A DNA stretch of 61,714 nucleotides, the filler included, from Hausera hauseri (taxonomy: Eukaryota): NCBI GenBank assembly GCA_046269625.1. It is 11 parts of 11 records of this genome, joined end to end, with 100 filler letters (N's around TTAATTAATTAA, not from the genome) between each part and the next. Parts side by side here need not be neighbours in the genome. Positions count along the whole stretch, not along the records: positions 27,944 to 33,576 come from JBJURY010216855.1; positions 33,677 to 40,544 come from JBJURY010056885.1; 9 more parts are not named here. The stretch is one strand, 5' to 3'. Positions within the stretch are counted from its first letter, which is position 1; each line of letters starts with the position of its first letter. This document shows, one piece after another, positions 17,794 through 56,029 of the stretch. The notes beneath the pieces were generated by a model. The model was not told the DNA's origin and searched no databases. It saw nothing but the letters and a program-made list of their open reading frames with translations. A program made the position numbers and the translations under genes.

Positions 17794-18688
17794 CTAGTGA
17801 CGCTTGCGATTGGACATTTCTTCAGCTTGGTGTTCATCATCATTACAAATCTTGTCATCGTCCATTTTACAATGTTCCGAACATTCATCAGTATCGTGAT
17901 TATTCCCAGTCCCATCTGCGTCCTTTGATTTATCGGTGGATCTACCCAATCCATTGGGTTTACGACTCTTCGACATTTCAAATTAGATCTTCAAAAGGAA
18001 TGAATGGGTCTCTGATACCGTCAAGCAATACCGATACTCTAAAATATGTTAGAAAAGCAGAGCTGCTAAAAACAATTGACTCGATCCAATAGGGATCTTT
18101 TGCAATTTTTCCATTAAAAGCATGATTGCGACTGCCAAACTTCCTTTAACGTTATAGCTGGGTGAAGGTAGAAAATTGTTAACACTCGTCACAACACCCA
18201 TACACGCTTGTGAGAATGGAATCATTGCATCTTCTACGGTACCTTTCGCCAGGCCAATTAATAACCAAACAAGAGTTGAGTTGGAGTATTTTTCTTTTTT
18301 ATTGTCACCCTGAATCCGATATGCACATTTCTTGCCCGATAAAGTTCTTTCACCAAACTCAAACAAATCATTCGCAAAAAGGATACAATTTTGAATACAA
18401 TGTCAAAAGGAAAATAATTGACTAGGTACCAAGAAAATGTCGCATGGATGACATTTTGATGACAAGTGCTTCACCGACCAACAAATTTAATGACACCAAA
18501 CCTGCAAAACACGACAATATCGTTGCAAACCAACTAGCAAGAGGATGTTGTCAGGAAAATGCTTTATTCCCCGGAGCAATCTGTCATACGTTGTAACTTA
18601 TTAACAAATAATGGCATACATTTATATAAGGGCATAATTCGATTGTGTCTGAAATTAACGCTAAAGTTGTTAGAAATTTTCCATCCAT
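17794..18688 (-). pseudogene. TMEM38: TRIC cation channel (TMEM38) pseudogene, no introns seen
   Basis: AFS*QHPLASWFATILSCFAG..LLVGE, WYLVNYFPFDIVFKI, KELYRAR, IGLAKG, PSYNVK, DPFIPFE; two TGA stops at Arg positions plus frameshifts. Confidence 0.85.
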
Positions 18689-23108: not shown

Positions 23109-23126
23109 CAACGAAATAAAAACAAC

Positions 23127-23579
<453 letters not shown>

Positions 23580-27943: not shown

Positions 27944-28495
27944 AGCCTTCGATCGTTTTCTAATGGTATCAGCGTTATAATTTCAATACAACTTCTCCCA
28001 CTCTTGAATCCCATTGACCTCACAATCAGCTGGTTGAGTATTATTTAATCTAATAACGTCTCATTCATTTGTTGTCTAGTAGGGATCACTATTGATCTAT
28101 AAAATTTGGTTTTCTGGCATTTGTAATAATCTCCTTGTCTCTTTATGAGTGTAAGGTATATGTAATGGACACCTGAACCTTGTACCCTACACTGTGCTTG
28201 ATTGGTATCTGAGTGAAACAAGCAGTTATATTGTCACTCGTTGGGTTCTTTTTTATTATCATACCACGGTATTATTTGTATCCCCATTATATATGGTGGG
28301 GGCATCCGTTCCGACATGCTCCAGTTCATCACTTTCTGACCTTTTTCTGAGTATGTTGGAGATTTTTCATTAACGGGTCTTCTGTTATGGTCATTGCGTG
28401 TCGTATTTTTGCTCTTTCGATCTCTTGCTTCTCCATTTGTCCAATTACTCTAGGGAGTCAAAAGATGATGCTTAATAATAGGCACTGCATTAACC
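27944..28495 (-). pseudogene. Signal-peptide-led ectodomain after integrase, homologous to the C7 FN3-like protein
   Basis: WLMQCLLLSIIF*LPRVIG, then WSMSERMPPPYIMGIQIIPWYDNKK..YNCLFHSDTNQAQC..HYIY, aligning with WIKDWRPHPDFGRFQIVLYDVATKK..NCDFEPGDDTQFC..HVYI. Confidence 0.6.
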
Positions 28496-31400
28496 AATGA
28501 GATCTGTTGGTTGGATCTACCTTGTTTACTTTTTCATTTATACTTAGTAATACTTCTTTTTCACCTTTTCTTAACTCAGTTTGCTTGGCTGCCGGCTTAC
28601 ATCTATTAACGTAAACCTTCAGGGATTTATCATTTTTCTTTAGACAAATATTTGGTAGATCCACTTTTTCTACTTTGTAAGTCCCTTTATATGGCCTGTC
28701 TAACTTAGATGTTTTGCCCTTTTTAATTGCCGGTGAGTACAACATTACTAGGTCACCTATTTTAATTTTTGGCTGTTTAGTTTTTTGGTCGTAGTATCTT
28801 TTATATTTCAGTTCGTAGTCTTTCTGGTTATCACCAATTGTTTTATATGCCAACTAGAGGCGTTCCTGCATTAACTGTTTATAATCTTTTACCTCCATTA
28901 TGTGTCAAACTGGCTTCACATTAAAATCTAGATCAATTGGTAATCATGCATCCCGTAAATACATTAAATAGAAGGGTGTCTCCTTGGTAACCTCATGGAC
29001 CGATGTCCGATTTACGAAAACACATGCATTTATATATCCGTCCCAATCGTCTTGTCTAGTGTTTACTACCGTTTGTAATTTCCCTTTTAAATCTCAAATA
29101 TATCTCTCGACCATTTAATTATTTTCTGGGTGCCCCTGCGTGGATCGTAGTTGTAATATCTTCAAAATATCATATACGGACTACATTACCGTTCCCGTTA
29201 AATTTGACGCTTGATCCGTCAAGAGGATTCTCGGGGCTCCATAATTAAATACTATATTTTCCACAAATTTTTTGGCGATTGTGTCGGCCACGACTCATCT
29301 AGTAAAGCAGTCAATAAAGACTAGGATGTATCGGTTTACATTGCAGGTTAATGGTAGTGGCCCCGTTATGTCCATTGCAGTAAACTCAAATGGTGCTGGG
29401 GGTTATCCCATACTTTGAGAGGTGCTTTGTATTTCGTTCCCGTGTTCTTCCGGGTAGCACATCATTTGCAGCTATCGCACCATTCCTGCACATCTCTCGT
29501 TATGCTTGGCCAAAAGTATTTCCGTTTTAACTTATTAAACGTTTTATTTGCTGATTGGTGTCTACCAAATAATCCGTCATGGTACCAGACCAGGTCCGTT
29601 TTGATGAACGAAGTATAAGAATCCTTCTTTTTCTTCATACGTTTCACTGAATCGGGCCAAATGACGAGCTAGCTCCTTATCAGCTGGTACAGCTTTGTCC
29701 TTTGTGTATTTTCTAATAGTGCTTATTTCAACATCCTCGTTTTGGTTTGCCTTAATTTTCTCTACAGATCCATCCATGCTCCATATGGCTGCAACTACTG
29801 CTTTTTCTGTATTTGATTTACTAGGTATTCTGGATAGGTAATTCGCATTGGCGTTTCGTGATCCTGGTTTATATTGGAAATTCAATGTATAGGGCTGTAG
29901 CTTTAGAGCCCATCGTAGTAGTCTACTGTTGGGATTTTCATGCTGTTTTAACCATTGAAGCGGTCTATGATCTGTATAGATTACCACAGGTTTATTTTCA
30001 CTAATGTAGGGCGAGAATACCTCCAAGGCAAATATTACGGCCAATAATTCTTTTTTAATTACTGCGTACTTCTTCTGATGCTTATTGAGTTTTCGAAAAG
30101 CGTAAGCTACTGGGTGCTCCTTACCATCTTCACCCTTTTGTGACAACACTGCTCCTATTCCATAATAGCTTGCGTCTGTTGCCAAAATGAATGGATTGGT
30201 CATATCAGGATAGATTAGAATAGGGGCAGTTAACAATCTGTTCTTCAAATATTCGAAAGCTTTTTGACATTCGTTTGTCCAAATGACTTTGCCTAGATTT
30301 TCCCGTAATAGTTCGTACAAAGGTTTTGCGATCTTACTAAAATCCTTTATAAATCTGCGGTAATAATTTGCTAGACCTAGAAATTGGCGTAGTTCTTTGA
30401 CTGTACCTGGCTTTGGAAAGTCTCTTATTTTTCCTAAAAGTTTATCTTGAGGTTTTACGCCATATCTATCTACTCGATGTCCTAGGAAATCTACTTCCGC
30501 TTGGGCAAACGAACATTTCTTTGGGTTTATCTTTAGACCTATTACTTCGCATCTATCAGAGGTCTTGCAGATCCCTTAGATGTTGTTGAAAATTTGATTA
30601 TGCTATTAATACATCATCAATATATGCCATGGCATGTGGTGCATCTAGCAGCAGAAGTTCTGTTCCTCTCTGAAACGATGGCGGACCGTTTTTAATCCAA
30701 ATGGCATCCTATTAAATTCCCATAAACCTTCTCCAATTGAGAAGGCTGTCTTTGGTTTATCCTCTTTTACCTCCACTTGCCAATAACCTTTTTGTAGGTC
30801 TATCTTTGAAAATATTTTCGATCCATGTAATTTATCTAATATCTCATCAATCCTTGGTAACGGATATGTATCCGTTTCTGTTATTTCGTTTAAAGCTCTA
30901 TAATCTATACAAAATCCCATGGTCCAATCTTTCTTCTTGACCATTACTACTGGAGCCGTCCATGGTGAACAACTTGGCCGAATTATCTTATTTTCCTTCA
31001 GTTCTTTTATTATTTTTCGTGCTTGTTTTTTATCGTATGCCAATCGATACGGTCTTTTCTTGATTGGTTTGTTTTGTCCATCATTTAACTTGATGGTATG
31101 TTGTATTATCATCATTATACCCAAGTCATAATCATTTAGTGCAAATCGACTGTTATTCTTTTCCAGCAATTCGATTAGTACCTTCTTTTCCTCCGTTAAA
31201 ATTTTACACTTTTGTAGCTTCTCATCCCAATTGATACTTGTAATTTTATTTCTTTTTTTATCTTCATTTAGTTCCTTCTTTAATTTCCTTAACATTAATT
31301 TTTCTATTTTATCTACGTCCGAAATTGTGGAACATACCTCTTGTCTTATTACTTCCTTACTAGTCGTTACTTCTCCCAATCTCATTCTTTCGTAATGTTT

Positions 31401-31990
31401 TTTCTTTACTTGCCGTATTACGAATCCGCAAATGGATCTTTCCATCCCTTACTTTATCTATGTGAGGGGCGATTAAAATATCATACTTCTCCATCACTTG
31501 TGGGAATGGTTCAAAGTAAATGACCTTCGATAATGCTTGACTTTCTATTTTTCCGGGTACTATTACCTCGGATCGCGGTGGAATTGTAATATCTTTCATT
31601 AATGAAACCACTCTTCTGTCTTCTCCGAAAGTCTTCAGTTGACATGTTCTCAAATTTATATAAACATTTTTTAATTGGTTCACTACATCACATCCAATTA
31701 AGATCTCGTTAGTCAGATTATCGGCTATCCTTATAGTGTGTTCTACAATCTGTTCACCAATCTTAATTTTGGCATCTAAGACCATCTTAATTTCTTCTGT
31801 ACCGAATGCTCTTACGTTCACTAAGGTAGTTATCGGTTTTCGTAATTTCCTCTTTAACTCTTTCGGCAATTGGCTCCTTTCCATTATCGTTGTTGTAGAT
31901 TTAGTGTCTAGTAAAGCCGTCATTGGGTATCCATTAATCTCTATCTCTATTTCTGGCCTTATAGATGATTGTTGTTCATTTTTATCATCA
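28496..31990 (-). pseudogene. pol: Ty3/Gypsy pol (PR-RT-RNaseH-IN), disrupted
   Basis: ALLDTKS protease, SPWTAPVVMV, FCIDYRALN, DLQKGYWQV, FNRMPFGL, YIDD, TDASYYGIGAVLSQ, YTDHRPL, MDITGPLP, IKIGDLVML..YKGTYKV. Confidence 0.93.
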
Positions 31991-33576
31991 GCTTTGCACG
32001 TAGACTCGTTTATTGGGCATTACATTTTCGTCAAGATTTCGTTGCATCTGTTGTATTTGATGCGGTGGGTATAATCCTGTATGCACTAAATATTGTGGAG
32101 CGGAGGGGTTCATTAATGGTTGTTCGTTATACAACTGTCCATGGTATTCATCTGCTGGATCTAGGTGAGGTAAGTCAGTTATTAACTTGTGTCTATACTT
32201 TGGCTTTCGTGTCTTAAGCACTAGTTGTTTAATACCAGTTACTCGACTGTATTTTGTTTTTGGATTTACTTGATTATATTTAGTATCATTATCATCAGGT
32301 ATACTATACGGGGATTCTTTTATGTCTTTGCTTTGTAATATTTTCCTCTTCCATCGTGCATCATGATTTGCTAGAAAACAACTTGCTACTGCTGGTATCA
32401 CAGCTATTAGGATTTTCCATGAGCACCCTACTGCTGCATGTATTCCATATGCCTTACCTAGTGCCGTAAATACTGTCCGTATGGCGTTGATAATGAAATA
32501 TAGCTAGAAAACCGGAAGCTGCTTGGCCGAAATATAAAATCTTTTCCATAACGTTCTTCGTTACTTTCTTCAAATAGTCCTTACCCATTAAGTTTATCCA
32601 TTGTGGTGATACTTCACCATTCCACATTACTCTCCTAGTTAATTCTGTTATAACTCTGTCTTTGGGGAAACAACAACATCCGTCGATAATCCTCTAGATT
32701 TTGTTGCGTATAGATTTCTCCCTGAGATATTCCTGTTAATGTTTCGAATTTTTGATTCCTCTGCAAATTGATCAAACTTAATGTCTCCGGTTTGGGCACT
32801 GGCTGTCTCTTTGGCATTCTAATCCATTTGCCATTATCGGTTTTAAACATTGGTGACATATTAAATGTATAATTGTATAGAGGAGTAGGTTTCACGTTAA
32901 TATCTAATAGTATTCTGGTTACTGGAATCATATTTCTTGCTTCTGTATAGTAAATTACCGGTAATTCCATGGTACATTCGTCCGTTGGCCTAATTGACAC
33001 TTCTACCTTCTTGCATTCTATCGTTATTAATATCTCGCCCATCACTCTTCCGATAATTCCGTCACCGAAGGGTATCACTGGCGCTACCATGTCTCGATTT
33101 GTTATTACCAGTGCCATTTTATTACGCATTATTCCGTAGTTCAACTTACATTGGTTCATTACAATTTCTCTATACAGACTTATAATCTCTTTCCTTACAT
33201 AGTTAATCAGAAAATCGATCTTATTGTCGAAATATTGTGTTAGCTTGATATCTTTCTTATCTATCTTAGTTTTCGCCCGGGGTATTTCTTTTCTTGATAA
33301 GAAAATACCCTTATAATTAGTTTTTGATATTTCTTTGCTACACTTATTTGTTACTCCAGTGATTTTAAATCTCATCATTTCTTCTGGATTTTCCGAATAT
33401 ACAGTTGTAGCTACTTCAGTCTACTTGACTTCCTTTCTTCCTTCTTTGTATGTCGCTGTTTCTTTTTCGGCCGTTTTTCCTACTGTTTTTTTTTCCTACC
33501 GTTTTTCCTTCTTTTAACAGTGTCAACTGACATTTGCTTGCCGATGTTTCCCATGTAATCTTCGACTCTCCAGTAT
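31988..33576 (-). pseudogene. env: Envelope glycoprotein of chuvirus-G / herpes gB-like (class III) type, C-terminal part
   Basis: YFDNKIDF..LYREIVMNQCKL, GEILITIECKKVEV, CTMELPV, PVTRIL, EIYTQQNLEDYRRMLLFP; membrane region FGQAASGFLAIF..YGIHAAVGCSWKILIA; two frameshifts. Confidence 0.8.
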
Positions 33577-33676
33577 NNNNNNNNNNNNNNNNNNNNNNNN
33601 NNNNNNNNNNNNNNNNNNNNTTAATTAATTAANNNNNNNNNNNNNNNNNNNNNNNNNNNNNNNNNNNNNNNNNNNN
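33577..33676. other. Artificial contig linker
   Basis: 44N-TTAATTAATTAA-44N. Confidence 0.99.
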
Positions 33677-33762
33677 GTATGGCACCTTGAGGTGCGTTCT
33701 CTTGATTTTATTCATAAAACATTTTACCCTATTGAGGAGATTGGCTGTGAATCTGGAAGAAC

Positions 33763-34437
33763 TCAACACACTGGGTATGTGGTTTTCCCATTGTCCAGCG
33801 TCCATTTCTCTAGACAATCCCGGCAATATTTGTGTCTACAATCTGGATTATCCAATACTACATATTTTTGTTTGAAGTCCGCTTCACATACTGGACATTC
33901 GTTTTCTTCTTTCTCCCATTTTTCGTCATCCAGGTCAACTTGTATTGTAAGTTCGATGTGCCCGAACACGTGGCCATCTTCGTCTTTATACATATATCCG
34001 TATATCATCTATTTAGTGTTTATGGAACTTTTCTTAGGGTCGCAACCCACGGGTACTAAGGTCCAATCGCTGATAGTGTCTCGATCTAAGTCGGGAATCT
34101 GAGCAGCTGATTGATATTTGTGGTATTGCCTTTTCAAGAGTGTCTTCACAAATTTATCTACGGGTACTATTAGTCCACCGTTCCCTTTCGATTGGAAAAT
34201 CGACGCAATGTATTTTCCTATCTTGGGATTTTCCCAAATATAAGTATTTTCGTAAACTTCCCTCTCAGGTATTATCTTAACGAAAAACATAGCCTCTTTA
34301 ATCTTTTGTTGGCTATAATATTCTGTAGTTACCAACATTTTTGGGTAGTCGTCGGCTGTGGCGAAATGTACGTTATCATTGGGATTTTTCTTCCGTAAGA
34401 TGTTTATTTCAGTTATTTGTCCCTTCGGTTCATTCAC
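33763..34437 (-). pseudogene. C3HC4 RING-finger-containing accessory ORF of the C7 element
   Basis: CPVC..CRHKYCRDCLEKW..YPVC (one Cys lost); 34009-34437 and 33763-34008 are in the same frame, split by TAG. Confidence 0.8.
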
Positions 34438-34685
34438 TATGCTTCCGAATTCTCTGGTTTGGGTCGATGTTTGGTTATTGGAGGATATCGGTTTCTCTTC
34501 TCTGACTAGCAGTTCTTTGTTTGTCTTAAGCGTTGAATTCTCTTTCGCTTGTCTTAGATTCGCTTCTCGGTCTATTTTCCCGCTCTTATTCTTTTTCTTA
34601 AACAGGTAGGCAATAAGAGAGATTTTCCTCTTATTTGTATATTTCGTAGGTTCGATTCCGGTTTCCTTTGACCAACTTCCCTTTT

Positions 34686-36080
34686 TCAGATATTTTTCGG
34701 AATTTCTCGTATTCTGAAATTATTGTGCGAATCGGCGGTTTTTGTTGGCTTCTTATGACTATAACTCGTACTGGGCTTATTTTCCATTTTTGGTTTCTTA
34801 TTAAGGCTCTCCGATTTGAGTCCTTGTATGACTATTCGATAATTTAATTTTTCTGCGGTTTTGACATTTCTAGGAGGAGAGTAGGGACGAAAATGTCTTC
34901 TGTGTCGGGTACTTAATTCGTCTGGTTTAGTGGAATGACGTAAATTTTGGTTTGGGTTATCCGGAATCCATTCGTGTTCCCATCTTAATCCGGCACTTAT
35001 GTCTCGTAAATACTGGAAACGTTGACTAGCGGTTAATAATCGGCTTATTTTAATATGTTCTCCGCTCATCGATTCAATCATCAATTTAAGTCGGGCTTCT
35101 ACAGTCGGTGGTAGATACCCCTTCTTTTCCTTAAGGTTTTGTTCCATCCGTTCCATCACTATAGGCTGGGTTTCTATTTCTCTTACTCCGGCTACGTGCA
35201 TCATAGGTAGTCTCAGTTTTCCCATGATCATTTCTACTTGATAACCAACTACGATACATCCATAGAAGCAGTGTATCAATTCTCCTCGGGCTCATTCTAT
35301 GTCTTTTCCATGAATCAATTGTTCTTTTTTTACTCCGGTTACTTCTGCATAGGTTTTCCTCACCATTTTCCTCGGACTGATCGTTTTTGAGTAAATTTCA
35401 ATACCGTCAGCTTCTCCTATCGATACTTCGATAGGAATATAATTCCCATCGTCTCCTTCTCCATGGTTTAATGCTATGATTCTGAGATTTCTCGCACCTT
35501 GCACTAGCACGAAGGAATGTAAATGTTCATCTCGGTCTCTTTCTGTTGGCTCTTGGTTAAATTTTAGAGGAGGCAATTAAATATACGATGCTTCCTCATA
35601 GGTCACTTCGATCATCACTTTAAGTGGAAACGCAGCCACCCTAAATTCTAACTGGCATTTGTAATGGTAGAAATCTCCACTATTGAGTTTGAAGGTACTA
35701 TATCGGTTTTGTCTTCCTTGAGAGGAATCCCAGGCTTGATCTTTAAGCCGATAGTAAATTTCTTCATCTGCCAGATGGATAAATATATTCTGATGATAAA
35801 CAGGTTCATATTGAATCAGCTGTCGCAACGCGTAAGCTTTCGCGTCCTTGTCGTTCCTCATGGCATATAGACGGACTACTCTGTTCTCTTCGTTGATGCC
35901 TTTTAGATTGTTGGGAATTTCACTAGTTCTTTTATATTCTACTATAATTTTTCCTTGGAGTTCATTATTGATCTGCCTGAACATCGATTTGGATTGGGGA
36001 ATCAGTACGGTGACATACCGTTGTATAAAATCGTCGACGCTACGTCAATTATTACTTCCTCTGGTCGCCATTTGTATACT
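34686..36080 (-). pseudogene. Accessory ORF with degenerate DEDDh (REX4/ISG20-like) exonuclease domain(s)
   Basis: IIALNH..EVSIGEADGIEIYSKTISPRKMVRKTYAEVTGVKKEQL..GCIVVGY..LRL parallels VALDCE..RVSIV..G..Y..VKP..V..T.VSGI..L..G.ILVGH..L.L; three ORFs in one frame. Confidence 0.6.
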
Positions 36081-36185
36081 TACCAATCTAGCAAACAACA
36101 AATAAAGGTTAATCCTAAAACAAAGTATAGTTTCAAACCAAAACCAGTTCTTTGTTTGATGACAGAATAACCTGATCTGTAATTC

Positions 36186-37600
36186 TCAGGTTATTTTATC
36201 ATAAAGATACTCTTGGGGTTCCAGTTTCCATAACTCCCATTCTGTAGTTTTAGAACGCTTAGAGTGACAATTTTTGGAAACTGATCGAAAAATTACAATT
36301 AATATAATGAGAACAAACGTTGATAGTACAACAATGGATACGATCGGTAAAGTGGTTAATCTCATTGGTGCTTGTGTGGTGACTGAAGTTGTGATTTCAT
36401 CGTCTATATTTTCATATACGTGCGATTCTGCACGAATTTCGTCTAAGGTACGCAATGTAATTGTTTGGTTTTGTTTATTCACTCCATATATTTGTACTAT
36501 ATAATAGGATTGTGGTTTTAGCAAATTGCATTCTGTGTGATAAGTGTTTTTAAGTAATGTTACAATTTGATTATTATACGTTGTTCGGCAGCTTATGTGT
36601 ATATCGTAATTTAGTTTTTCTTCTACAAAGAACACAATCTTAGATCGATGCGCCAAATATTTGATAGGTATAATTTCTAATTCTCCTTTAGGCACACTGC
36701 TTAATGTAACGAATCTCTCAGTGGTACTAACTCGAGTAGTCAGCTTCTCGATTGTCGTTTCTACTGGAATCCGCCATATTCTATTCTCCGGGTAATAGGT
36801 TCGCAAATGTTTGCTCGGTTTATTCGTTTGTACTTCATATAGGTCAAATTTTATTTTGAATTCTTGGTTTCCTGGTAGTTTGCAATATGGATGTTGCACA
36901 CCGGCATGAACAGAGCAGTATTTTATGTTCGGAGTTTTCCGTTTACTGCTACGAAAACGATGCTAATTTTCTGACTAAGAGTTAATCCTGTTCGAGCATC
37001 TACTTTGATGCATTGTTTCTCCTTATTTATTAAGACCTCTTTCATGTTTTCATCTAATAGCCTTATATTCGGGTCGGTAGATTGTAGCATTTCGTCGGGC
37101 TTCCTTCCGAATCTCCCGGGCCAATGGGGAATAACCAGCTGAAGTTGTGGGTTTACTTCGATATAGACTTCTGACGAGTCTGGTAAGTATAGTCGATAAG
37201 TAAGGATGTAAACATGTCTAAAATCTATGTCGCAGAACTGGGTATCATCTCCAGGTTCAAAATCACAATTTTCCGTCTTTTTTGTTGCTACATCATACAG
37301 GACAATTTGAAATCTTCCAAAATCGGGATGCGGTCTCCAATCTTTAATCCAACACATACAGAGTCTGGCGAAAAACAATGAATCGTCATTTATTTTAACA
37401 ATTTAGTGTCGTCTTGCTTTTGGATCTCTTCAGCCGTTGGTTTCTTTTCCGCTATGGTATTTTTCGCTTTTAGTCCGCTTTTCCGTATTCCGTATACGTC
37501 TCCTAGTGTAGATTTATCGTCCCACCACTGAGTTTGTGTTTCTGGAATGTAAGAAGCAATTAGTGATAGTGCTAAGACTATCTGAACGTATGATATCGGT
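36186..37600 (-). pseudogene. Type I membrane protein with FN3-like repeats, starting in frame with the integrase C-terminus
   Basis: Signal-like ISYVQIVLALSLIASYI; repeated C-x9/10-C units; FN3 motif NLLKPQSYYIVQIYGVN; Thr-rich stalk; TM IVSIVVLSTFVLIILIVIF; short cytoplasmic tail. Confidence 0.65.
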
Positions 37601-40544
37601 CTAGTAATTATTGAAGAAGTTTTTGTCTCGTGTTGGCGTAAATTGTAACGTTTATTGGGCCGCATCTCCGTCTTAACAACTCTTTGTACTAACACGACTT
37701 CTTCTTTTCTATTTTTGTTAATGTACACCGTAACTGGCGTAACTATGGTAACTTCATACGGTCCTCTACCTGTACGAGTCAGTTTTAATGGGGTGCATTT
37801 CTTGGCTACTGGATAATGTACATAAAGCCAATTTCCTTGTTCTAAATCATGCAGTTTCGCTTTTTTATCATACTGCTTTTTAAACTGTTCTTGATATCCT
37901 TGGGATAACTCCTTATCAATTTCGCAACGATTTTGTAGTCGCATTTGTAATACTTCTGCAAAGTTTTGTTCTAAATCTTCGGGATTGACAGTATATGGCG
38001 TCATTCCTAAGTCTGTGGATAACACAGCTTCACGTCCATACATCATGGAAAATGGCGTAAATCCTGTTGCCAGATGTGGGGTGGTATTAATCGCGAATTG
38101 AGTTCCTTCTAAAAATTTGTCTCAATCCTTTTGATCCTTAGCTACTACTGTTGATAGTATGCGTATGACAGTTGCATTCATTCGTTTAACCATTCCATTA
38201 CACTGAGGGTGATACGCGGTAGTAATTAACCGTTCGATTTCGAATGTCTTGGTAATCTTCTCGAAGAGTTCACTGGTGAAATTTCTTCCTCGGTTTGTTA
38301 ATATTTGGTTTGGTGGTCCATATCGGCAGATGATTCTTCTTACTACAGCTTCGGCCAAGGTTTCTGCCTTTTGATAAATTTGCGCTATCAACTCGACAAA
38401 ATAAGTCAATCGATCGATACAAGTCAAAAAATACTTATTGTTTTTATGAGTTGTAGGTAACGGTCCTACAATGTCCATTGACATGGCTTGCATAGGTCTG
38501 TCTGTTACGGCAATTGTTCTTAGCTCTGCCATGTAATTCTTTGTCTTTTTTGTTTAGTTGCACATACTTCACAAGCATTTACCCAATTCTTTACATCGAT
38601 ATAGATACTGGGCCAGAAGTATTTATTCAATATTCTTTCCAACGTCTTTTTCCATGATTGTGCCCGCTAAATAAAAATCATGTTCTGCCATTAAAACTTC
38701 GGTCCGTAAACCTTTAGGAATAACTATTAATTTTCTCCCTTTCCGTTCGTAATACAAAATGTCTTCACTACTCTTGTTATTCAAGATACAGTAGTTGTGC
38801 CCATGTCTGTGTAAGTGTTTCTTTAGTTGTCGTCCTGTCGGCATAATATTCTTTTTAGCAAATTCTATAATCTGATGGATAACTTTATCTTTTCTTTGTT
38901 CGACCGTGATTTTAATGGTTTGTCTGTTGTCAATGGACTTTGACGGTCTATTAATTCCTCAAGCTGAGCTTTCTTTATTACAGTGATTGCACTTGTCTTA
39001 GTTCTTAACCTGGATAGCGCGTTGGCATCAACATGTTTGTTTCCTGGCTTATAGCGAAATTCAATATTGTATCTAAAGATTTCTTCGATCCATCGGTTAA
39101 CCCTGCATGTCAGGTTATTTGCTTGACGTTTTAGAGTCGTGACGGCTTTGTGACCAGTGACAATTATAATTTTCTGCCCGTACACGTAAATGTTGAAGTG
39201 TCGAAGCGCTTCTTTTACGGCTAGAGTTTCTAATTCACTAACGGAAAAGTTTTTCTCGGCCTTTTTCAGAGAACGCCCTCCATAAGCAATTGGGTATTCT
39301 AATTCGTCGTCTTCTCTTTTCTGTGCTAATCCATATCCAATACCTTCCTGACTGGCATCTGTCTTAATTATAAAGGGCAATTAAAGTCTGGGTATCGTAA
39401 AACAGGTTCATTTGTTAATATCTTCTTCATTTCGGCAAACGCTTTCTGTTCGACATCTGTCCACTTCAATTTAATTCCTTTATTAAGCAAACAATATAAG
39501 GGTGCATTTATTTTCGAGTTGTCTAGCACATAAGTGGCATAATATCCACAGAGACCTAGCCAATTCCTTAACTCTTTCTGATTTTGTGGCTCCATGCAAT
39601 CTGATATTTTGTTCAATAGTGAATTATCTGGTCTTGATCCTCCTTCTCCAACTATATGGCCAAGGTAGGATACTGCATTTTTAGCTCATTTACATTTCTT
39701 TGGATTTAATTTTAATCCGGCTTGTTCTAGTCGCATTAATGTGTGCCCAATAACCTTCAGATGTTCCTCATCCGTTCTTGACGCTATAATTACATCATCT
39801 AAAGACGCAAAAGCATGATCTAGTACCATCAACATTATGTTCATCATTCTACTAAAAACAGCTGGTCCAGTGGTAATATCAAACGGCATTTACATTAAAT
39901 TCTTAGATACCATCGTGTGTTTTGAACGCTGTTTTATATCGGTTTTCATCTTCAATTTCTACTTGCCAATATCCGGACTGTAAATCCATTGTGGTAAACC
40001 GTTTTGCTCCTGAGAGCCTGTCTAGAGCCTCTTTTACTGATGGCAGTGGAAAAGAATCTTTCATTACGAGATTGTTTAATGCTTTGTAGTCAGTGCAGCA
40101 TCGATGTTTCGTAGTACCCTTCTTTTTGACCATAAGGATCGGTGAGTACCAAGATATATAACTGGGCCTAATTATATCGGCCTTAAGCATTCGCTCGACT
40201 TCCTTTGTTATCTCGGGCCTTAGTGAATGCGGCGGAGAATACCATTTCAACATCTTTTGGTCTTCAAGATCTATTTCTTCATTCGAACCAGGCTTTTTCT
40301 TAAGTGGAATAGTCAACTTGAATGCTTTTGCCCTGCCAATATTTTCGTCGTCCTTAGCAATAATCGACTTAGAGACATAATAATTCATAGAATTCACAAT
40401 AAGATTCGGGGGAAAACTTAGTTTCAACAAGCGGTGGTAATTCAGGATACTTCTAAGGTTTTTCTTTAATAGTTATAGCTGACACTCTATATGTATCTCC
40501 CAATGTTGTATAAGCATGAAGCTTCACGGGGGTCGGTGCACTAT
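37601..40544 (-). pseudogene. pol: Ty3/Gypsy pol (RT-RNaseH-IN), disrupted
   Basis: SPILMVKKK, DYKALN, DLQSGYWQV, SLDDVII, TDASQEGIG, ELETLAV, MDIVGPLP, TAYHPQCNGMVKR, GRGPYEV. Confidence 0.93.
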
Positions 40545-40644: not shown

Positions 40645-41857
40645 TTTTGGAAACCCCATATCTCTCATGATGTTCCATAGCTTTTTATGCTGTACACAGT
40701 CAAAAGCTTTGGTGTAATCAATGAAACAAGTATGAAGGTCTACGTTGCACTCCCTGCGCTTCTCGAAGATGTTTCTCATATTGAAAATATGGTCTCTAGT
40801 GCCCCAACCTTGTCGGAAACCAGCTTGCACTTGATGTATTTCTTTTTCTTCTTTATTTTTCATTCGTTTCGTGATGATGTGTAAGAGGATTTTGCTGGAA
40901 TAGCTTACTAGAGTGACGGTGCGGTAATTGGTGGACAGTTTCAGATTACCTTTCTATGATATAGGAACATATACTTCCATGCTTTGGGCCATTCAGTACC
41001 GTTCCAGATCTTTACATACAGTGCGTTATAGATTCGAGCGCTAGCTTCTTCTCCGGCTTGAATTAGTTCGGCTGGTATGTCATCACAACCTGGTAATTTT
41101 CCTTTTTTTTAAGACTACTGATTGCCCAAATTGCTTTATCTAAAATAGGTTCTGGGTCTTTATCTTCGTCTTTAATTACTGTTTCTGCACCGCTTTTGGC
41201 GTCTCTATACATTTCCTAGCAGTATTATTTTCATCATGCTAGAATGTCTTTGTTTTCTGATAGTGTGTTTCTTTCTTTGTTATCTATTACTTGTAGTTTT
41301 GTTTTAAATTCCCTAGTTAGTGCTTTAATTCCTCTGAACATATCTCCATCTTTTCCTTGTTTTTGAAGATCTTCTATTTTGTTGCATGTATTTGTTATAT
41401 ACCGTTTTTTGTCTTTCATGATTTCTCTTATGATTTTTCTGATTCAGTTTTTGTAGTTGTCCCTTTTTCGTTTTGCCCTTTCTCGTTTTAATTGTCTTCT
41501 TTCTTCTATGAGTCTCCGTCTTTCGTTTGTGGTGTAGTTCTGTGTCTTTTGGATTTTTTTCGGTACATGTTTTGTGCTGTTGAAATGAGGACATCTATTG
41601 CGTACATGGCTAACTCGTCAAGTATCATGGAGTCTTGTATTGTCATTAGAATTTCGAATTTATTTTGTACTTCGATGTTGTATTCTGGTGGTATGATCTT
41701 CAAATCATATCAAACTGGATGACTTCCTTTGTGATTCTTTTAATCTTTACTTTAACATTTGCTATCAGCAACTCATGATATGAGTCGCAATCTGCTCCTG
41801 GCAATACATTTGTGGCTGTTATGCTTGACCTTTCTTTTGTTGCACTAAGATGTAGTC
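40645..41857 (-). mobile_element. RTE-clade (BovB-like) non-LTR retrotransposon fragment (EN end to RT)
   Basis: DYILV..PGADCDSYHELLIA, PGCDDIPAEL, NYRTVTL, QAGFR..GTRDHIFN..CFIDYTKAFDCV.H.KLW. Confidence 0.9.
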
Positions 41858-41878: not shown

Positions 41879-44793
41879 AGTAGTATTATAAGGCAATCAG
41901 TGATTTGGCGCGGACAATTGGTTGCGCAATAGGTGGATTTAACAAAAAACTTCGATGGCGTAGCCAGTCGGGGTAAGGGGGAGATAACGTTTTTTGGAAA
42001 TGTTTTAAGGGGGAGACAAATATTGTATATTTTTGTTTTTAATTAGGTAATTAATTAGGTAATTATGTGTTTTAACTAAATAATGTGTGTAATTTTATTT
42101 AAATAATAGTTATGTATAATTATAGTTGATAAAGTTGTTTTCCGAGAGTGCTGGGGTCACCCTAGGTGCTGCGGTCGGCCGCGTCGTCTGGGCGTTCGCC
42201 GGTAATTAAGTAATTGTTTTTAATTAGGTAACTAGGTAATTATAGTATAATTATGGTATAATTATGTTTTGTAATCCTTGATAAGAGCGGGGCAGACATA
42301 CTGTCAGGGTAAGGGGAGTGACAAAGTCTGACTCAGCGGGTTTTTTATTTTTTCATCATCATCATTCTTTTTTATTTTTCATCATCATCATTCTTTTTGG
42401 TAACGTAATTTCTTTTTCTTTAGTTAGACGTGAGACGCATTATGGGGTAATGACGTGTTATGTCTTTGTAGTAAGTTAGGTACTAGATGCTGTATATACC
42501 AGCATTCTGTTTGATGACGTCAGCATCTTGATGTCGTAATTTCTTTTTTTTCTTTAGTTACGTGCAGTAAGGGGTGAAGGGGCTGTGGTGGTAATGTGTC
42601 TTTGTCTCGGGACTAATAGTGTTAGGTCTATGTAGCGTCAGGTGCTGTGTCGTATATGGGTAGTGGGTCAAAGAAGGGTCATATTTTGATGTTAATGTCG
42701 CGGTTCTCAAGGGCGATGATGGAGATTTAAGTCGTCTTCTTCGTGTTTAGGCCATGTCGATCATTAAAGGGGTACATTTTTTCTGTTAAGGGCGTGTTTC
42801 TCAAGTGTGCTGGTAGTGATTTAGGTCGTCTTCATCGTGTTTAGGACAGGTCGGAGCATTAAAGGGGCACATTTTTTCTGTTAAGGTCGGGTATCTCAAG
42901 GATGCGGGCGGTGGTTTAGGTCGGATTCTTCGTGTTTAGGGCCATAGAAGGGTGATATTTTCTGTTAAGGGCGTGTTTCTCAAGGGTGTGGGCGGTGGTT
43001 TAGGTCGGCTTCATCGTGTTTAGGGACATGGAAGGGTCATATTTTCTGTTAATGTCACGGTTCTCACAGGCGATGATGGAGATTTAAGTCGTCTTTTTCG
43101 TGTTTAGGGCCATGTCGATCATTAAAGGGAAACTTTTTTCTGTTAAGGGCGTGTTTCTCAAGGGTGCGGGCGTGGTTTAAGTCGTCTTCTTCGTGTTTAG
43201 GGACATGTAAGTGGGGTATTTTCTGTTAAGGTCACGTTTCTCAAGTGTGATGGTGCTTTAGGTCGGTTTCTTCGTGTTTAGGGATAAGTCGGAACATTAA
43301 AGGAAAACTTTTTTCCTGCTAAGGTCCTGTTTCTCAAGGATGCGGGCGATGGTTTAAGTCGTCTTCATCAAATGTTTAACACACAAATTTAGACGGTTAG
43401 ACGAATGGCTTTATTCACGTTGGTCGTACAGGTGTGTTTTGCTTGAGCGATAGCAAAACAATGGATGGCTTTACCCCTTTGTACGAGGACGAACACTGGA
43501 ATGTTCCACTCGTTGCCGGATAAGTTTGGTAAGAATAATATTTCTGTGTTTTGTTTCGTCTTTCTAAGGAGCGGGCCGATAAATTATTCGTACAGTGAAA
43601 ATTGTTGTTTGAATGTTGGTAGATTTTCACAGTTTTACTTAGGAAAGATAACAACGGTCGGTTCGTCTTTATTAAGGGCGACCGGATAAAAGAAATGTGA
43701 AAATTGTTATTGGAATGTTGGGATGTTGGTAGATTTCAAAGTTTTACTTCAGAAAAATACAACGTTAAGATACCCGTTAGAACTAAAAAATTGTGTGCAG
43801 ATTGACTGGAAGATCAGCCAAATATCAACTGTTTGAAGATGGCCGACTTGACAAAACTGTAAGTAACAAAAATTTCTCATGTTGTAAGTAACAAAAAATG
43901 TAAATTTCTCAGGACACTACACATATTGTATAGTTTGTACTTTCTCGAATGACTAAAACATGTAGTATTTGCCTTATGTTAATAAAATGAACTTACCAGT
44001 GTTATAATAATAAAATGTGTGTGATAAACGTTACAAGATTCAGCCGCCATTTTTGCTTCCACAAAACTCTGTCCTCTGACTTTACCTTCTGCTGTCACAT
44101 GACCCCGCTTCCTGTTCTGCCCGTTCCGCTTGACTTTGTCCTTGCGGCCGCTTCCTACGCCTGACTTCACCCATCTTTCGTGTACACACATACGGCACTC
44201 TGCGCCTCCTGTACTAGCCTGCAACGTCACCTGACTCTGCCCCCTACGCCTTCACCCGCCATCTTGCCTTTGCCGACCCTCGACGCCTGCGACGACTAAC
44301 TCTGCCCCCTTGCGCCTCCACATGACGACACCTGTCTCCCCCTACATCCGCCATCTTCCACTGTCTTTGTCCTCGCCTATCCCCGCCTCTCGACAAGTGT
44401 GTGACATTCCCCCGACCTCTAAATAATTTGCTATATTTCTTATACATTACAACCTCTGCAAAGGAACATGATGATGAAAAACACTAAGTGGGCCGAAACA
44501 AGGTAGACATTAGGAAAACTATATTGGAGTATAGAGCCCCACAAGGAGAGAGGACACCGAGCCCTGTCACTCCTAACTGGTCATAAAAAGAATGATGATG
44601 ACGAAAAACCTGCTACTGGAAGGTCTTGGTCACTAAAAAAACAATAACGCCTTATAAAATGACACTACTACACACGTCCCTCGCTCCATCACCCCAACTA
44701 ACTAGCCATCAAAAGAATGATAATTAAGATCTATAAACATTGTGCTATTTGTTCCAGGCGCAGAACGACTTTTCGCTCATCTTATAACATGGT
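41879..44793. mobile_element. Non-coding element bounded by long degenerate inverted repeats (possible non-autonomous Polinton-like or foldback element)
   Basis: Inverted similarity between 41879-41990 and 44675-44793, and between 42316-42372 and 44585-44640; left end AGTAGT; internal tandem array. Confidence 0.4.
42681..43380 (+). repeat. Minisatellite, about 8 units of about 83-96 bp
   Basis: Core ttttctgttaagg..ttctcaag..ggtttaggtcg..cttcgtgtttagg repeated; long and short variants. Confidence 0.9.
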
Positions 44794-47465: not shown

Positions 47466-49383
47466 ATGTTCTTGTGCCACCAGATTTCCAAGTGTCTGAT
47501 ATCGGTTCGTATAGTGAAGATGAAGAAAACATTATTAGAAATAATGATGATGTTTCCTCAGATAAAACAGAGGCTTATTCCATTCATGAGGACTCAACAC
47601 CATCAGATGATGACTCGTCCAGTAGATAAAGCACTTACAGGTGGACAAAGGGTAGGTTTCGATCAAGCCAAACAGTGCACGATGATGTCACTTTCTGCAA
47701 GCAGATAAACTATCATCAAAGTCAGACTACTTTCTGAAATTATTTACACGACAGCTGATTACAGAAACTACTGAGCATACAAATTTTTATTCAATTCAAG
47801 TATCACAAAGTTGCATAAATGTGTCAGATGCAGAAATAAGTGTTTGTGGATATACAGTTGATGATGGGGAATGTTGCCGTGCCATCTGTGACAGACTATT
47901 GGAACACATTGTCGGTATGATAACATCAAGGATTCTATGTCACTAAAACGTTTTCACAAGACAAAGAGGTACATCCACATTAGGGGCAATACTGGCTCAT
48001 CTGATGATGCACTTCTAAAAATGCTCACTGTGCTTGAAAGCATCAGAGCTCAGTACAATATCATTGAAAATGAAACCAGTATGTCAGATGATGAAATGAT
48101 GATACCATACAAAGGACAAAAAGCTGTTGCTTTGCGGCAGAATATTCCTAGCAAACCCGTGAAGTGGGGTTTTAAAATATTTGTACGTTCTGGTGCTTCA
48201 GGGAATGTGTATGATATGTTGGTGTATACTGGAACAACAACATTTAATGGTATTCAGTTCGGCCCAGCAGCAACCAATCTCGGAGTGGGTGTTTTTGGGC
48301 AACTTTTTCTGCTCATTTGACCTTACTCGTCATCTAAAGTAAGCAGTACACATTGACAATTTGGGTACCTTGCGCAGTATTAGCATTCGCAACTGTCCAA
48401 TTGAAGATGAAAAAACACTACAGAAGCGTGGACGAGGAATTTTTGATTGTGCTGTGGATATACGATGGGTTGACGATAAAACTGTAACTCTTGCCAGCTC
48501 ATTTGTTGCAGTGGAACCTGTTGGGATAATGAAACGTTACAGTAAGGAAACCAAAATCAAAGCAGATGTACCATGTCCGGCGACTGTAACTCAATATATC
48601 AAACAAATGGATGGAGTCGATTTGTCGGATATGCTTATTGCACTATATCGAACTCCAATAAAGTCAAAAAGGTGGTATCTTGGGATTTTTGCTCAGTTGT
48701 TGGACATTAGTGTAGTCAATGCCTGGCTACTGTACAAATGAGATTATGCTGGCTTATTTGAAAACGAAGAAGCTACCAGCAACATCCCTCGTATGTTGTC
48801 TTTGAAGGACTTTAGGTTACAAATTTCATCTACCTTCATTAATGCAACTAAAGTTGATCAGCGTGGACAAAATAGTTTCGCAACTACGCATGTTCCAAAA
48901 GAGACGATTTTCAAAGCAGCCAACACCAGTGGGAGATGATGCAAGATTTGATGGTGTGGTCATGACATTGTAAAGACTGTGAAGGGTAGATGCCGAAATT
49001 GTACGAAAGGACAAACCAGGATGAAGTGCTCGAAATGTGGGGTACGGTTGTGCGTTGCACAGAGCTGTAATTGCTTTGTTGATTACCACTATAAAAAGTG
49101 ATCGACAAGTAGTATGCGACCGCTGTGAATGTGTCTGTATATCGTACAATAGTGGACTAGTTGTGTGGTATTTGTGTTACACGATGACTATTTTGAAATT
49201 TATGATTACTGCGTTGCTATTATTCGTAATTTAGGCAATGTATCCAAATGGATGCTCGCTGTAAAATCCATGTTCTTGTGATACAAAAGAATTGAATCAG
49301 AGATATTTTTATTTTAATATGTTCAAAACAAAAATGTGTTAAAAATGTTCGTGCATATGTAAGTCTCTTTGCCACGTTAAGGG
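47466..49383 (+). mobile_element. piggyBac (PGBD3-like) transposon, disrupted
   Basis: DEMMIPYKG, KPVKWGFKIF, GTLR, WVDDK, MDGVDLSD, NAWLLY, RFDGVGH plus C-terminal Cys cluster; right end AAGGG followed by TTAA at 49384-49387. Confidence 0.9.
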
Positions 49384-52539: not shown

Positions 52540-53514
52540 CACTGAATTTAACGAATTACGACAAATTATTACTAATCCGGATACAAATAAACCGAAAAAA
52601 TTTGGGGATATTGAAAATTCCTAAATTAGCAGAAACACTGGAGATTTTGGCAAACGAACCGTATGCAATAAAAATGGATCTTTGATTCAAACGGTCGTCG
52701 ATGAAATCCGTAATGCCAGTGGTATCTTAACAGTAGGAGACTTTGAAAAGTATGAAACAATTTGGCGAAAACCTGCGGAAGTTGGATTAATAGATAATGA
52801 TGTTTTATATACTTTGCCACCTCCATCAAGTGGAATTTTAGTTGGGCTGATACTCAATATTTTAGCAGAATATTCATTTGATTCTAGTTTCGTCCATGAT
52901 TGTAAAAAAGCCGGTTTATTTTACCATCGTTTGGTTGAAATTCGTTTACGGACAAAGATCAGCTCTAGGAGATATGGATTGCGTAAACATCACTAAAATA
53001 ATGGCAGATCTCACATCGGACAAATTTGCCCAGTGGATAAAATCTAAAATATCAGACGATAAAGTCCATCCAGTGAAATACTATGATCCACAGTTTGAGG
53101 TGAAGAAGATCAGGGAACCTCTCACTTCAGTCTTATTTCTCCTGACTGTGATGCAGTCTCCGCAACATCTTCAATTAACTACTTATTTGGTTCATTGGTA
53201 ATGGGATCGAAAACCGGAATTTTGTACAATGATAAAATGGATGATTTTTCTACACCGAACGTATCCCATGTTTACAAATTACCCCCATCGTCAGCTAATT
53301 TTATCCGACCGTATAAACGTCCAATGTCACCGATGAGTCCTAGAATTATCGCGGATAAGAATGGAGATGTAAAAGTCGTTGTTGGTGCCGCTGGAGGTAG
53401 CAAAATACTATCGAGTACAGCACAGGTTGCGGCCTTGTCTACTGTATTAAATTTATCAATTAAACAGTCCATTGATTCACCCAGAATAAGTCATCAATTA
53501 CTTCCCAATGTTGT
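52540..53514 (+). pseudogene. GGT: Gamma-glutamyl transpeptidase fragment (large subunit end plus small subunit)
   Basis: LRQIITNPDT..GD, LAETLEILA, PPPSSG, YHRLVE, GILYNDKMDDFS, NFIRPYKRPMS, GAAGGSKI, PRISHQLLPN; frameshifts; no intron. Confidence 0.92.
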
Positions 53515-53516
53515 CA

Positions 53517-54425
53517 TACTTCCCAATGAATCGGGAGTGGTTTTGTCCCTCGAAAGTGATTCCGATGACTATCTAATATTAGAAATGGCGGGCAGATTAC
53601 TCCGCAGTATGTACAATTGGGGAAGTTGTTACAAGAGAAAAGTTTCCGAAGGTAGTTTCATAAACGACGGATGGTGGCATTTCGTTTCTGTCGTTCGGCA
53701 ATTATCGGATTCACATTCATTTGCGTTTCGAGTCGATGGTCATCCCGACGGATCAAGAGCTCATTTACCTGTAGACATTGGAGGTGTGAATTTCAATTAT
53801 TTTGGAAATATGTATCTAGGTGAATACAAAGAAAATGAAACGATTATGACTCTTGACAAAGAAAAACCAAAATCAGTTGAAGGTTTTGATGAATGCATAT
53901 CATCATTTTTGGTAACCAATATTCTCACTGAAAATGAATCAGTGGAATACAAAGATTTTCTCAAACTAGTCACTGCAAAATATTATATATATTGCTCTGA
54001 AGATATGTACAATCAAGAAAATCAGTGCAGCAATGAAGACTGCTATTTTCAAGGAACTAGTATTCAACAGTGGAAAAAAATGCAATTCGATTGTTCAATG
54101 ACGTCTTTTACCGGTAACCGATGTCAAGATGTGTCTTCAACTGTACAGTTTATGAAATATCCCAGTTATTTTATCTTGAAGTACACATACAACATTAGTT
54201 ATTCAATTATTAAAATTGTATAGGGATTTCAAACAAACTCAGTGAAAATATCTAAACTAATCGTTCTCAACGACGAAGCAGCAAAAGAATTTCTCGAAAT
54301 TGGGATATACATTCAAATTAGAGCCAGTTTCATTCAACTGAACCGTAACACGGCGGATAAAACATATTATTTGTTAAAAAATCGAATAAATGTCGTCGAT
54401 GGATTTTACCATATTGCGAGATGTT
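53517..54425 (+). pseudogene. NRXN: Neurexin fragment (LNS-EGF-LNS)
   Basis: DYLILE, INDGWWHFVSVVR, MYLG; EGF C..QG..IQQW....DCSMTSFTG..C.D; GFQT, DGFYHIAR. Confidence 0.85.
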
Positions 54426-54640
54426 ACAGAAAGAAGAGTGTTATTGTTCTTTATCTGAGTAATGGGACGTTACAAATAAACACTTTCAACGATCACACAA
54501 AACTTGTATTATGTCCATGTTTGTCCGCCATTACATACATTGACGGTACCAAAACTTTTAGGACAATCCGAACGGATTATCTGCGAATTTCGGGAAAAAC
54601 TTTCGAAATGCATCAGAGATTGGAGTATTGCTTGAAGATT
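54422..54640 (+). pseudogene. PLK1: Polo-like kinase polo box 2 fragment
   Basis: SVIVLYLSNGTLQINTFNDHTKLVLCP..SAITYID..FRT..RLEY. Confidence 0.88.
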
Positions 54641-54649
54641 ATCTCACTC

Positions 54650-56029
54650 ACAATTCAAAAGGAATATCTATCTCATCTAAAAATTGATGGTGGTGCCAAA
54701 CAAAGTATGTGGAAAAATGAAACTAAAATTGATGAGTTACGTATAGAAATATTGAATATATACTCTTGGGTATACATTAAACATGATAGTTATCGTTGTC
54801 GGTTTAGTGAAATAGTGCATGAAATGAATAGTGATTGTATTATCCCAAAGTACTGGTTGTCACTCAAAATAGAAACCACCCCGTATATCGAAGAACGATT
54901 AACCGACTCACTTTTTACCGATTATCAATTTTCTGACAATCACATTACTGCCAACAGTTCTTTTAACGATAGAATTGAACCAGCTGGTAGATAGATACGA
55001 AGCCTCAAAGATAAGACTTATTATGTCTGTGCTAATTGTGTAGAGTTCCGAAAAATCGATTTGGACCCATCAAAGAGATACCCATCGTTTCAGAATCGAC
55101 TCAGTCATCACGCGGAAACGTCAAATCATTTAATTGCAACCAAAATGTTCGATTATAGACGTCTGTCAAACGGCGCCAAGCTGACAAGTTCCGATGAGAA
55201 TCAGACAACATATTACAAACTGACGGGTTCGTCCCCAAAGTCGTTGTATATTCAGACCGCTCACAAGACAACTTGACGCAAAGAAATCGATCCGCAGTCT
55301 CCATAACGCAACATGATACCACCGATCAGGGAGAAACCTGTAAACGATGAGGTTAGATTCACCATTATACATTGTTCAGTCAGCGAATATTTTTATACAT
55401 TTTTTATTCATGATATTTACCCATTTTTCTCCTACTTTGTCCATTATATAGGTAACACAACATCGCCTTCCTTTGGTTTTGTAAGTAGGGAAATATCTGA
55501 ATCTTGCTTACATAGTCGCAACAACAGTTTTTGACTTGATGTATATTCATATATGCGTTTAGCCCATACCATTCGTTGTAAGATATTCAACTACGTGTTC
55601 ACGACTTTTCTTAGATCATTTTTTAAAACTATATTCCAGTCTCTAGATTTCGTTGAAAATAAAACGATTAACGATTACAGTACACCTATAACAATGTATC
55701 TACTGTTGGCCATTTGTAAAGATCAAGGCGTCAGTGAAAAACTATATTTTCTATGTGGATTCACATCCAAATCTCCATCTACCATTGGTAATATTCGAAT
55801 GCTAACGGAACAGACTATAAACTTCTTTAACTATCCCGTAAAAGCCAGAAATTCAGTTGTAATAAATAGTCACATACAAATTATACTTGATAATAGTAAT
55901 CACTTGAATAGTACGCAATTTATGGAAATATTCATTTATTCTTTACGAGATTTTGTGGATAATAGGATAAACATTATGTCATGGGGAAAATTGGATTATG
56001 CTGAGATGGTATTCATCATTTTATATTGA
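54650..56029 (+). pseudogene. Degenerate integrase-like module plus hydrophobic segment and unknown downstream protein
   Basis: SFNDRIEPAGR*IRSLK weakly resembles NGxxERxNRxIK; 55060-55480 is homologous to 10060-10545; same frame as the upstream mosaic. Confidence 0.45.

Follow-up and report, generated by a model that had tools for sequence, protein, structure and literature searches.

Decayed Ty3/gypsy elements of Hausera hauseri with a gB-type glycoprotein upstream of pol on one contig and an FN3-type membrane gene and a pseudo-exonuclease-RING gene downstream of pol on another

The window analysed here is a stretch of 61,714 nucleotides from Hausera hauseri (assembly GCA_046269625.1) in which 11 contigs are joined by spacers of the form N44-TTAATTAATTAA-N44, and two of these contigs, C6 (positions 27944-33576) and C7 (33677-40544), each carry a Ty3/gypsy-type element. 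Both elements lie on the minus strand and are interrupted by stops and frameshifts; the remaining contigs contain pieces of eukaryotic genes and transposons, and the host is probably an animal. On balance, our analysis favours the view that C6 and C7 are decayed copies of two Ty3/gypsy families, likely of one lineage of complex, envelope-bearing elements: C6 with a gB-type glycoprotein before pol and a likely FN3-type gene after the integrase, and C7 with a predicted three-FN3 membrane gene and a catalytically dead DEDDh-RING gene after the integrase. The features of C6, and the spacer that separates it from C7, are as follows.

32638-33420, minus strand: gB/chuvirus-type (class III) glycoprotein ectodomain, middle part (PF24664, E 3.7e-36, profile positions 256-497 of 653)
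31991-32693, minus strand: C-terminal glycoprotein portion and tail, spread over two additional frames (PF24664 positions 519-569, E 0.086, and 558-627, E 6.8e-4)
31363-32019, minus strand: retropepsin protease (PF00077, E 4.1e-9)
29580-31448, minus strand: reverse transcriptase (RT) and RNase H (RH), broken (PF00078, E 2.5e-10; PF17917, E 5.4e-38)
28461-29668, minus strand: integrase in several fragments (PF17921, E 8.3e-14; fragments matched to other integrases)
28440-28496, minus strand: hydrophobic segment that resembles a signal peptide, read in the frame of the integrase end and interrupted by a stop (19 residues, hydropathy 1.69)
27945-28329, minus strand: what is probably left of the first FN3-type domain in a membrane open reading frame (ORF), with stops and cut by the contig end (weak bridging alignments, C-x10-C)
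33577-33676, no strand: artificial spacer between C6 and C7 (N44-TTAATTAATTAA-N44)

The C6 glycoprotein lies directly upstream of the protease, and the order protease, RT, RH and integrase that follows is that of a Ty3/gypsy pol. PF24664 represents the Monjiviricetes fusion glycoprotein; its N-terminal part (profile positions 1-255), in which the fusion loops and cysteine bridges of gB domains I-II would be sought, is absent from the contig, and a transmembrane helix is predicted at about 32369-32425 (hydropathy 1.92). The gB/chuvirus-like fusogen that had been proposed upstream of pol is thus borne out by the profile match and the predicted anchor ahead of the protease. A PDB sequence search with the glycoprotein returned nothing meaningful. 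The predicted cytoplasmic tail contains a PSAP motif followed by LYPP (32096-32107, minus strand); P(T/S)AP is a late domain that recruits the endosomal sorting complex required for transport, and this copy is a candidate for one. At its other end, the contig stops ahead of any second domain or transmembrane anchor of the post-integrase ORF.

The glycoprotein-pol order of C6 is not new because errantiviruses with the order GAG-ENV-POL have been published: Chary and Hayashi describe such elements, with a gB-type env, from several clades in Nematoda, Bryozoa and Platyhelminthes (PMC13524379). These elements resemble C6 in having a Ty3/gypsy pol with a gB-type env upstream; they differ, as far as a comparison by description goes, in that three ORFs are annotated for them, whereas C6 likely has a further membrane ORF after the integrase. 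The main text of that paper gives no hits for the words 'accessory', 'fibronectin' or 'RING'. Its supplementary file 1 (rows 1445-1453) lists nine flatworm GAG-ENV-POL elements, eight of which have no recorded long terminal repeat (LTR) under a rule of 3-kb extension and 99% identity, which could be explained, among other ways, by long 3' regions. A chuvirus glycoprotein also occurs in the BEL/Pao elements called Anakin, according to two papers that name them (PMC12440569, PMC13524379). C6 shares a chuvirus-like class III glycoprotein with Anakin but has a Ty3/gypsy-type rather than a BEL/Pao pol. No BEL/Pao-specific Pfam family turned up at a threshold of E 0.1 when the pieces of C6 were scanned, and its RT/RH has 47-48% identity with that of gypsy elements. 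Troyka was dismissed as a comparison system, as it is described without env (PMC12440569, in part).

C7 contains a second pol and a different set of genes downstream of it:

38868-40472, minus strand: RT and RH in four frame pieces (PF00078, E 2.7e-9; PF17917, E 1e-26)
37650-38666, minus strand: integrase, broken (PF00665, E 1.1e-11)
36189-37608, minus strand: signal peptide, three predicted FN3-type domains, transmembrane helix at about 36288-36344 and short tail, over three frames (homolog P0005; hydropathy)
34791-36038, minus strand: first half of an accessory ORF, with an unnamed N-terminal domain and then an ISG20/REXO4-like DEDDh region at about 35490-35040, with internal stops (P0002, 38%, E 2.3e-94)
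33766-34500, minus strand: second half of the accessory ORF, with a C3HC4 RING at about 33900-33766 (P0002, 40%, E 3.5e-53; PF13639, E 5.5e-8)

After RT, RH and integrase, C7 thus continues with the FN3-type membrane gene, then the exonuclease-like domain and finally the RING. The contig begins just before the RT, and the protease and anything further upstream, such as a gB gene, would lie beyond it.

Queried with a single frame of C7 (34689-36962, its four stops replaced by X), phmmer returned eight hits among 1.84 billion representatives. For the membrane gene, the key homolog is P0005, an intact protein of 479 amino acids that spans C7 from 37608 to 36189 over three frames (E 7.9e-68) and that has, by hydropathy, a signal-like N terminus and one anchor. 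Its structural model, built from 4 sequences, contains three beta domains with a predicted local distance difference test (pLDDT) score of 53 and a predicted template modelling score of 0.27. FN3 proteins occupy the top rows of a Foldseek search of the PDB with this model. In VIA comparisons, domain 2 matches fibronectin with Z 8.7 (root-mean-square deviation 2.2 over 84 residues) and domain 1 matches FN3 domains with Z 6.4-6.7; the scores of other Ig-like folds are only a little lower, and domain 3 is barely compared. An Atlas search gave a weak FN3 lead (0.90, recognition 2040). A word-based protein search with the C7 FN3 piece against proteins of 453-2000 amino acids found no relative, which is weak evidence, and the same kind of search with alignment A4 returned P0005 alone. 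The P0005 homology and the FN3 fold at Z 8.7 uphold the earlier call of an FN3 membrane protein after the C7 integrase, and its product is a predicted type I membrane protein with three FN3 domains. The signal-like stretch of this gene lies in the frame of the integrase end with no gap, and P0005 is called as a stand-alone ORF; a separate gene and a Pol-fused product both remain as readings.

The gene that follows is best understood through P0002, an intact protein of 870 amino acids that covers both C7 halves (36038-34791 and 34500-33766), so that the pseudo-exonuclease and the RING belong to one gene. Both domain calls of the original prediction hold, but its two modules are a single ORF. 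The C7 copy of the RING lacks one of the eight zinc ligands, and the RING of P0002 is complete (PF00097, E 2.6e-7). An eight-member family profile (A1) matches ISG20L2 (PDB 7yw5) with E 1.5e-13 and the PolC exonuclease and ISG20 (1wlj) with E 2.7e-8 each, and P0009 reaches RNase_T with E 3.1e-4, below the curated cut-off. The catalytic D, E, D, H and D columns are kept in three of the eight family members and lost in five. C7, P0002, P0006 and P0008 keep none of the five positions, and P0003 lacks both of the two that it covers; P0007, P0009 and P0010, which form two clusters, have all five as D-E-E-H-D, with E at the third. Since the intact P0002 has lost these residues too, their loss is a trait of the family rather than a product of decay in C7. 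C7 and P0002 thus share profile homology with DEDDh enzymes of the ISG20/ISG20L2/REXO4 type, from which they differ in having every catalytic position replaced.

Judging from the residues kept in P0007, P0009 and P0010, active and dead versions of the family appear to coexist. The N-terminal domain, represented in the window at 35500-36038, is common to all of P0002-P0010 and contains an invariant PN-L motif; it has no Pfam or PDB match, and a single-sequence fold of the ORF reached a pLDDT of 33. PDB sequence searches with single C7 pieces and with profile A5 gave nothing meaningful, the matches to SUMO being dismissed at E 0.2 or worse, and an Atlas search with 34012-34719 gave no useful match.

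Components of this cassette have been seen separately in other retroelements. DnaQ-like exonucleases are known accessory domains according to a review (PMC6338049, in part), and the bdelloid rotifer LTR elements Juno and Vesta are described with an active RNase D-like DEDDy exonuclease as ORF3, which replaces env (PMC5408684). Both these elements and C7 are gypsy-like with a DnaQ-like exonuclease gene downstream of pol; the Juno/Vesta enzyme is of the DEDDy type with intact catalytic residues, whereas that of C7 is of the ISG20/REXO4-like DEDDh type, catalytically empty, joined to an N-terminal domain and a RING, and placed after an FN3 gene. The planarian gypsy element Burro/GYPSM1 has, in the available text, an env-like region between gag and pol and RING, BIR, BCL2, MATH and ubiquitin-related domains upstream of the protease in a polyprotein of about 4,900 amino acids (PMC6431247). 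C7 also has a RING, but there it comes after the integrase, where a distinct ORF joins it to a dead exonuclease; the Burro/GYPSM1 env resembles gypsy Env/F proteins, and no FN3 protein is named in that part of the paper. Our literature search, whose scope left out most subscription papers and Repbase so that an earlier description is possible, found no FN3 membrane gene or pseudo-DEDDh-RING gene for gypsy elements. The proposal of a new class was overstated, as gB upstream of pol, DEDD exonucleases and RING domains have all been published in LTR elements. C6 and C7 are a new variant of errantivirus-like Metaviridae, in which the FN3 and pseudo-exonuclease-RING cassette of the C7-type elements is real and is the new part.

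Whether this cassette belongs to the element can be judged from its recurrence. P0002 and P0004, which covers the half with the FN3 domains and the anchor, are each encoded on just one ENA contig, with a length of 16,242 bp in both cases. This is probably the same contig, and the two genes are therefore probably together in a second family. P0003 is encoded on a contig of 12,445 bp. The distant homologs P0006-P0010 are on contigs of 1.6-3.0 kb without context (1.8-3.0 kb for P0007, P0009 and P0010). Logan contigs from two runs, X1 (at 80% likeness) and X2, were mapped on C7 only, and their summed depth is not equivalent to copy number. In X1 all 30 bins of C7 are covered and identical records have a depth of 8-12; the variant places listed for the FN3 gene have 34-59 diverged contigs, and those for the RING half have 23-47. 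In X2, which has another organism label and study, coverage is thin (29 of 30 bins), and diverged contigs lie over the FN3 gene. With dozens of diverged contigs over both genes, the C7 extras are repeated DNA that is contiguous with pol on C7; their enclosure within LTRs is inferred.

The C7 genes after the integrase could instead lie outside the LTR element and be part of a different repeat, of a nested insertion or of an expanded cluster of host genes beside it. No LTR bounds them, no pol is tied to the contigs of P0002-P0005 (nor do the short contigs of P0006-P0010 supply context), and the summed depth in X1, which is 840-5,500 for the FN3 gene, drops to 17-450 across 34364-35966. Yet the FN3 gene begins without a gap in the integrase frame, depth is unbroken from pol into it, three diverged records (2, 4 and 6) reach even the thin stretch 34364-35966, and the genes lie on one strand, colinear with intact ORFs, and recur on contigs of identical length. 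We therefore regard a location outside the element as improbable. It is far less probable still that repeats belonging to different families were assembled into a chimeric C7. The sequence here is highly repetitive, and among the listed records none runs the full length of the contig, but P0005 is colinear with C7 over 37608-36189, as is P0002 over 36038-33766, and identical records at depth 8-12 overlap across 34569-36082. The C7 extras are thus best read as part of the Ty3/gypsy element.

The bin between the FN3 and exonuclease-RING genes (35967-36195) has a summed depth of 10,887, far over its neighbours. On the minus strand it contains a stretch rich in pyrimidines that ends in AG, with GTAAGT four bases further along; these are possible splice signals and may point to a subgenomic message. 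In P0002 and P0003, similar residues translate upstream of the conserved start.

The relation between C6 and C7 is less direct. They are separate contigs with distinct pol sequences, as had been stated: a spacer lies between them, blastn finds no match, and their Pols are 42-43% identical (42.2% over 325 RT/RH columns). The original prediction also held that they share a homologous post-integrase ectodomain, and this has weak support through P0005 as a bridge. A frameshift-aware alignment of P0005 to C6 28520-27944 scores 54, a value reached by none of 300 and later by 1 of 1500 shuffles and by none of 176 same-length tiles, and it extends to five bases from the contig end. With a two-sequence hidden Markov model (HMM), the C6 frame reaches 7.0 bits, as do 9 of 5000 shuffles, and C6, C7 and P0005 have in common a C-x10-C spacing and, at 33-34 residues, a later IP. 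We judge homology of the C6 stretch to the FN3-type ORF more likely than not. For the phylogeny, a word-based protein search with the C7 RT/RH against proteins of 1045-3325 amino acids returned 98 distant Pols, 24 and 32 of which were used in two IQ-TREE runs; C1 was left out of every tree, the models were without mixture and close relatives are missing. C6 and C7 both nest among gypsy Pols in the trees. They are sisters in the 26-row IQ-TREE run (Shimodaira-Hasegawa-like approximate likelihood ratio test 86) and in the 34-row run over 405 RT/RH/integrase columns (89/93, bootstrap not settled).

Several results weigh against a single lineage of such elements. A search for long direct repeats that might be LTRs found none in either contig, and a Pfam scan of pieces matched no gag on C6 or C7; both contigs end inside or adjacent to ORFs, and a gag would fall past their ends. 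Compared pairwise, the post-integrase stretches of C6 and C7 score 25, which 1719 of 3000 shuffles reach, so that the shared ectodomain is undetectable without the bridge and weak with it (1-14 of 1500 shuffles, depending on the scorer). The higher of these counts comes from a second scorer, the mean matrix of P0005 and C7, which also places 3 of 176 tiles at or above C6. Across the whole window the two-sequence HMM gives the C6 stretch E 1.3, third among non-self hits, and the P0005 model behind the FN3 assignment is of middling confidence (pLDDT 53, 4 sequences). FastTree with 102 rows does not join C6 and C7, so that they are joined in two of three runs, and the sister node, to which shared decay or host composition could attract them, is starred in none. 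PF24664 is listed for none of the 98 long Pol relatives, none of them is from a contig of 16,242 or 12,445 bp, and none is closer than about 48% over RT/RH. Run X1, finally, may be the source sample and hence not independent.

Some of these results suit a different account, in which two unrelated solutions are placed side by side. C6 would be an ordinary GAG-ENV(gB)-POL errantivirus followed by unrelated decayed sequence, and C7 a gypsy element without gB that has the FN3 ORF as its sole membrane protein and, after it, the exonuclease-RING gene. Besides the negative direct test, the weak and scorer-dependent link and the FastTree result, this account can draw on Pol identities, since C6 is closer to its best database Pols (47-48% over RT/RH) than to C7, and on the rise of the GAG-ENV-POL order in several clades, as reported in PMC13524379. 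Against it, three scorers rank the C6 stretch above at least 98% of nulls at a place named beforehand, a signal-like stretch follows the integrase in frame on both contigs, and both IQ-TREE runs join C6 and C7. On this evidence we consider the two-solution account rather unlikely, and continue with the reading of C6 and C7 as members of one lineage.

If so, a full element could have the layout gag, gB, pol, FN3 and pseudo-exonuclease-RING, as originally proposed. The order of genes within each contig stands, but no sequence with both the gB and the exonuclease-RING gene was found, and the combination is put forward tentatively, at a lower confidence than the common lineage. It would need a gB upstream in a C7-type element or an exonuclease-RING gene downstream in a C6-type element, both of which are unseen. 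Intact homologs of two of the modules do exist (P0002 and P0005), but none with all modules was found. No glycoprotein appeared when 20 of the 98 Pol relatives were rescanned, and a related-locus search found no relative in viral contigs (7 queries) or metagenome contigs (2 queries). The accessory genes of C7 have no match in the other window contigs, whether those with gypsy-type pol (C1, C3, C4 and C10) or C2 and C11, which are related to each other. Three gypsy Pols, P0042-P0044, have 750-1,000 residues past the integrase core without a Pfam match; they show no blastp match to the C7 accessory families.

A possible, if not the favoured, extension of these observations is that one invertebrate Metaviridae lineage constitutes a complex enveloped virus, with gag, a gB-type fusogen, pol, a three-FN3 attachment or receptor-mimic glycoprotein and a pseudo-exonuclease-RING protein. 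A mechanism can also be proposed for the favoured reading of C6 and C7 itself. In Metaviridae, Pol carries out reverse transcription and integration, and it would do so here. The gB-type protein would fuse the particle membrane with that of a target cell, for cell-to-cell spread. Herpesvirus gB depends on separate binding proteins, and the FN3 protein, on the surface of the particle or of the producer cell, could be the binding partner that the gB-type fusogen needs; alternatively, it might mimic a host adhesion or cytokine receptor. The dead nuclease fold of the exonuclease-RING protein may attach to an RNA-silencing complex or to the ends of RNA, whereupon the RING could ubiquitinate whatever the fold binds, which would make the protein a counter-defence factor. 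In the complex-virus extension, entry would be split between fusogen and binding protein as in herpesviruses, and host silencing would be opposed by an RNA-guided E3 ligase.

Envelope-bearing Ty3/gypsy elements have been described as three-gene elements, and for the gB-type ones a second protein at the surface, of the FN3 type, would be a direct candidate for the choice of target cell. The combined layout, if true, would be that of a retroelement in which a class III fusogen shares the task of entry with a distinct binding protein. The fusion of a dead ISG20-like nuclease to a RING, an architecture that our literature search did not find for retroelements, is a candidate counter-defence protein, and with active and dead family members side by side the switch from active to dead can be studied. 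With the intact homologs as queries, both C7 genes can also be sought in the region that follows pol in published GAG-ENV-POL elements.

Other transposons and gene pieces occur elsewhere in the window. Contig C1 (1-7091) contains a gypsy-type element; its first and last 77 bases are identical, and 3632-3945 and 6231-6537 are 85% alike, which may reflect an LTR pair or a circular assembly. A third gypsy group, mutually related and far from C6 and C7, is found in contigs C3, C4 and C10 (11582-23008 and 50555-51400), with the integrases of C4 and C10 69% alike, and a TRIC host-gene fragment lies near it (18052-18402). In C10, matches to gamma-glutamyltranspeptidase, laminin G and POLO-box lie close together without visible introns (52625-54991, plus strand), downstream of a gypsy integrase and a TPR fragment; the region resembles a patchwork of retrocopied or captured pieces of host mRNA. 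A tandem repeat with a period of about 170 bp occupies 42665-43370 (C8). A non-LTR-type RT fragment, a piggyBac-like DDE_Tnp_1_7 transposase and pieces of the SelO and MMS19 host genes are found in the stretches 40645-40953, 47892-48738 (C9), 23109-23420 (C5) and 60470-61093 (C11).

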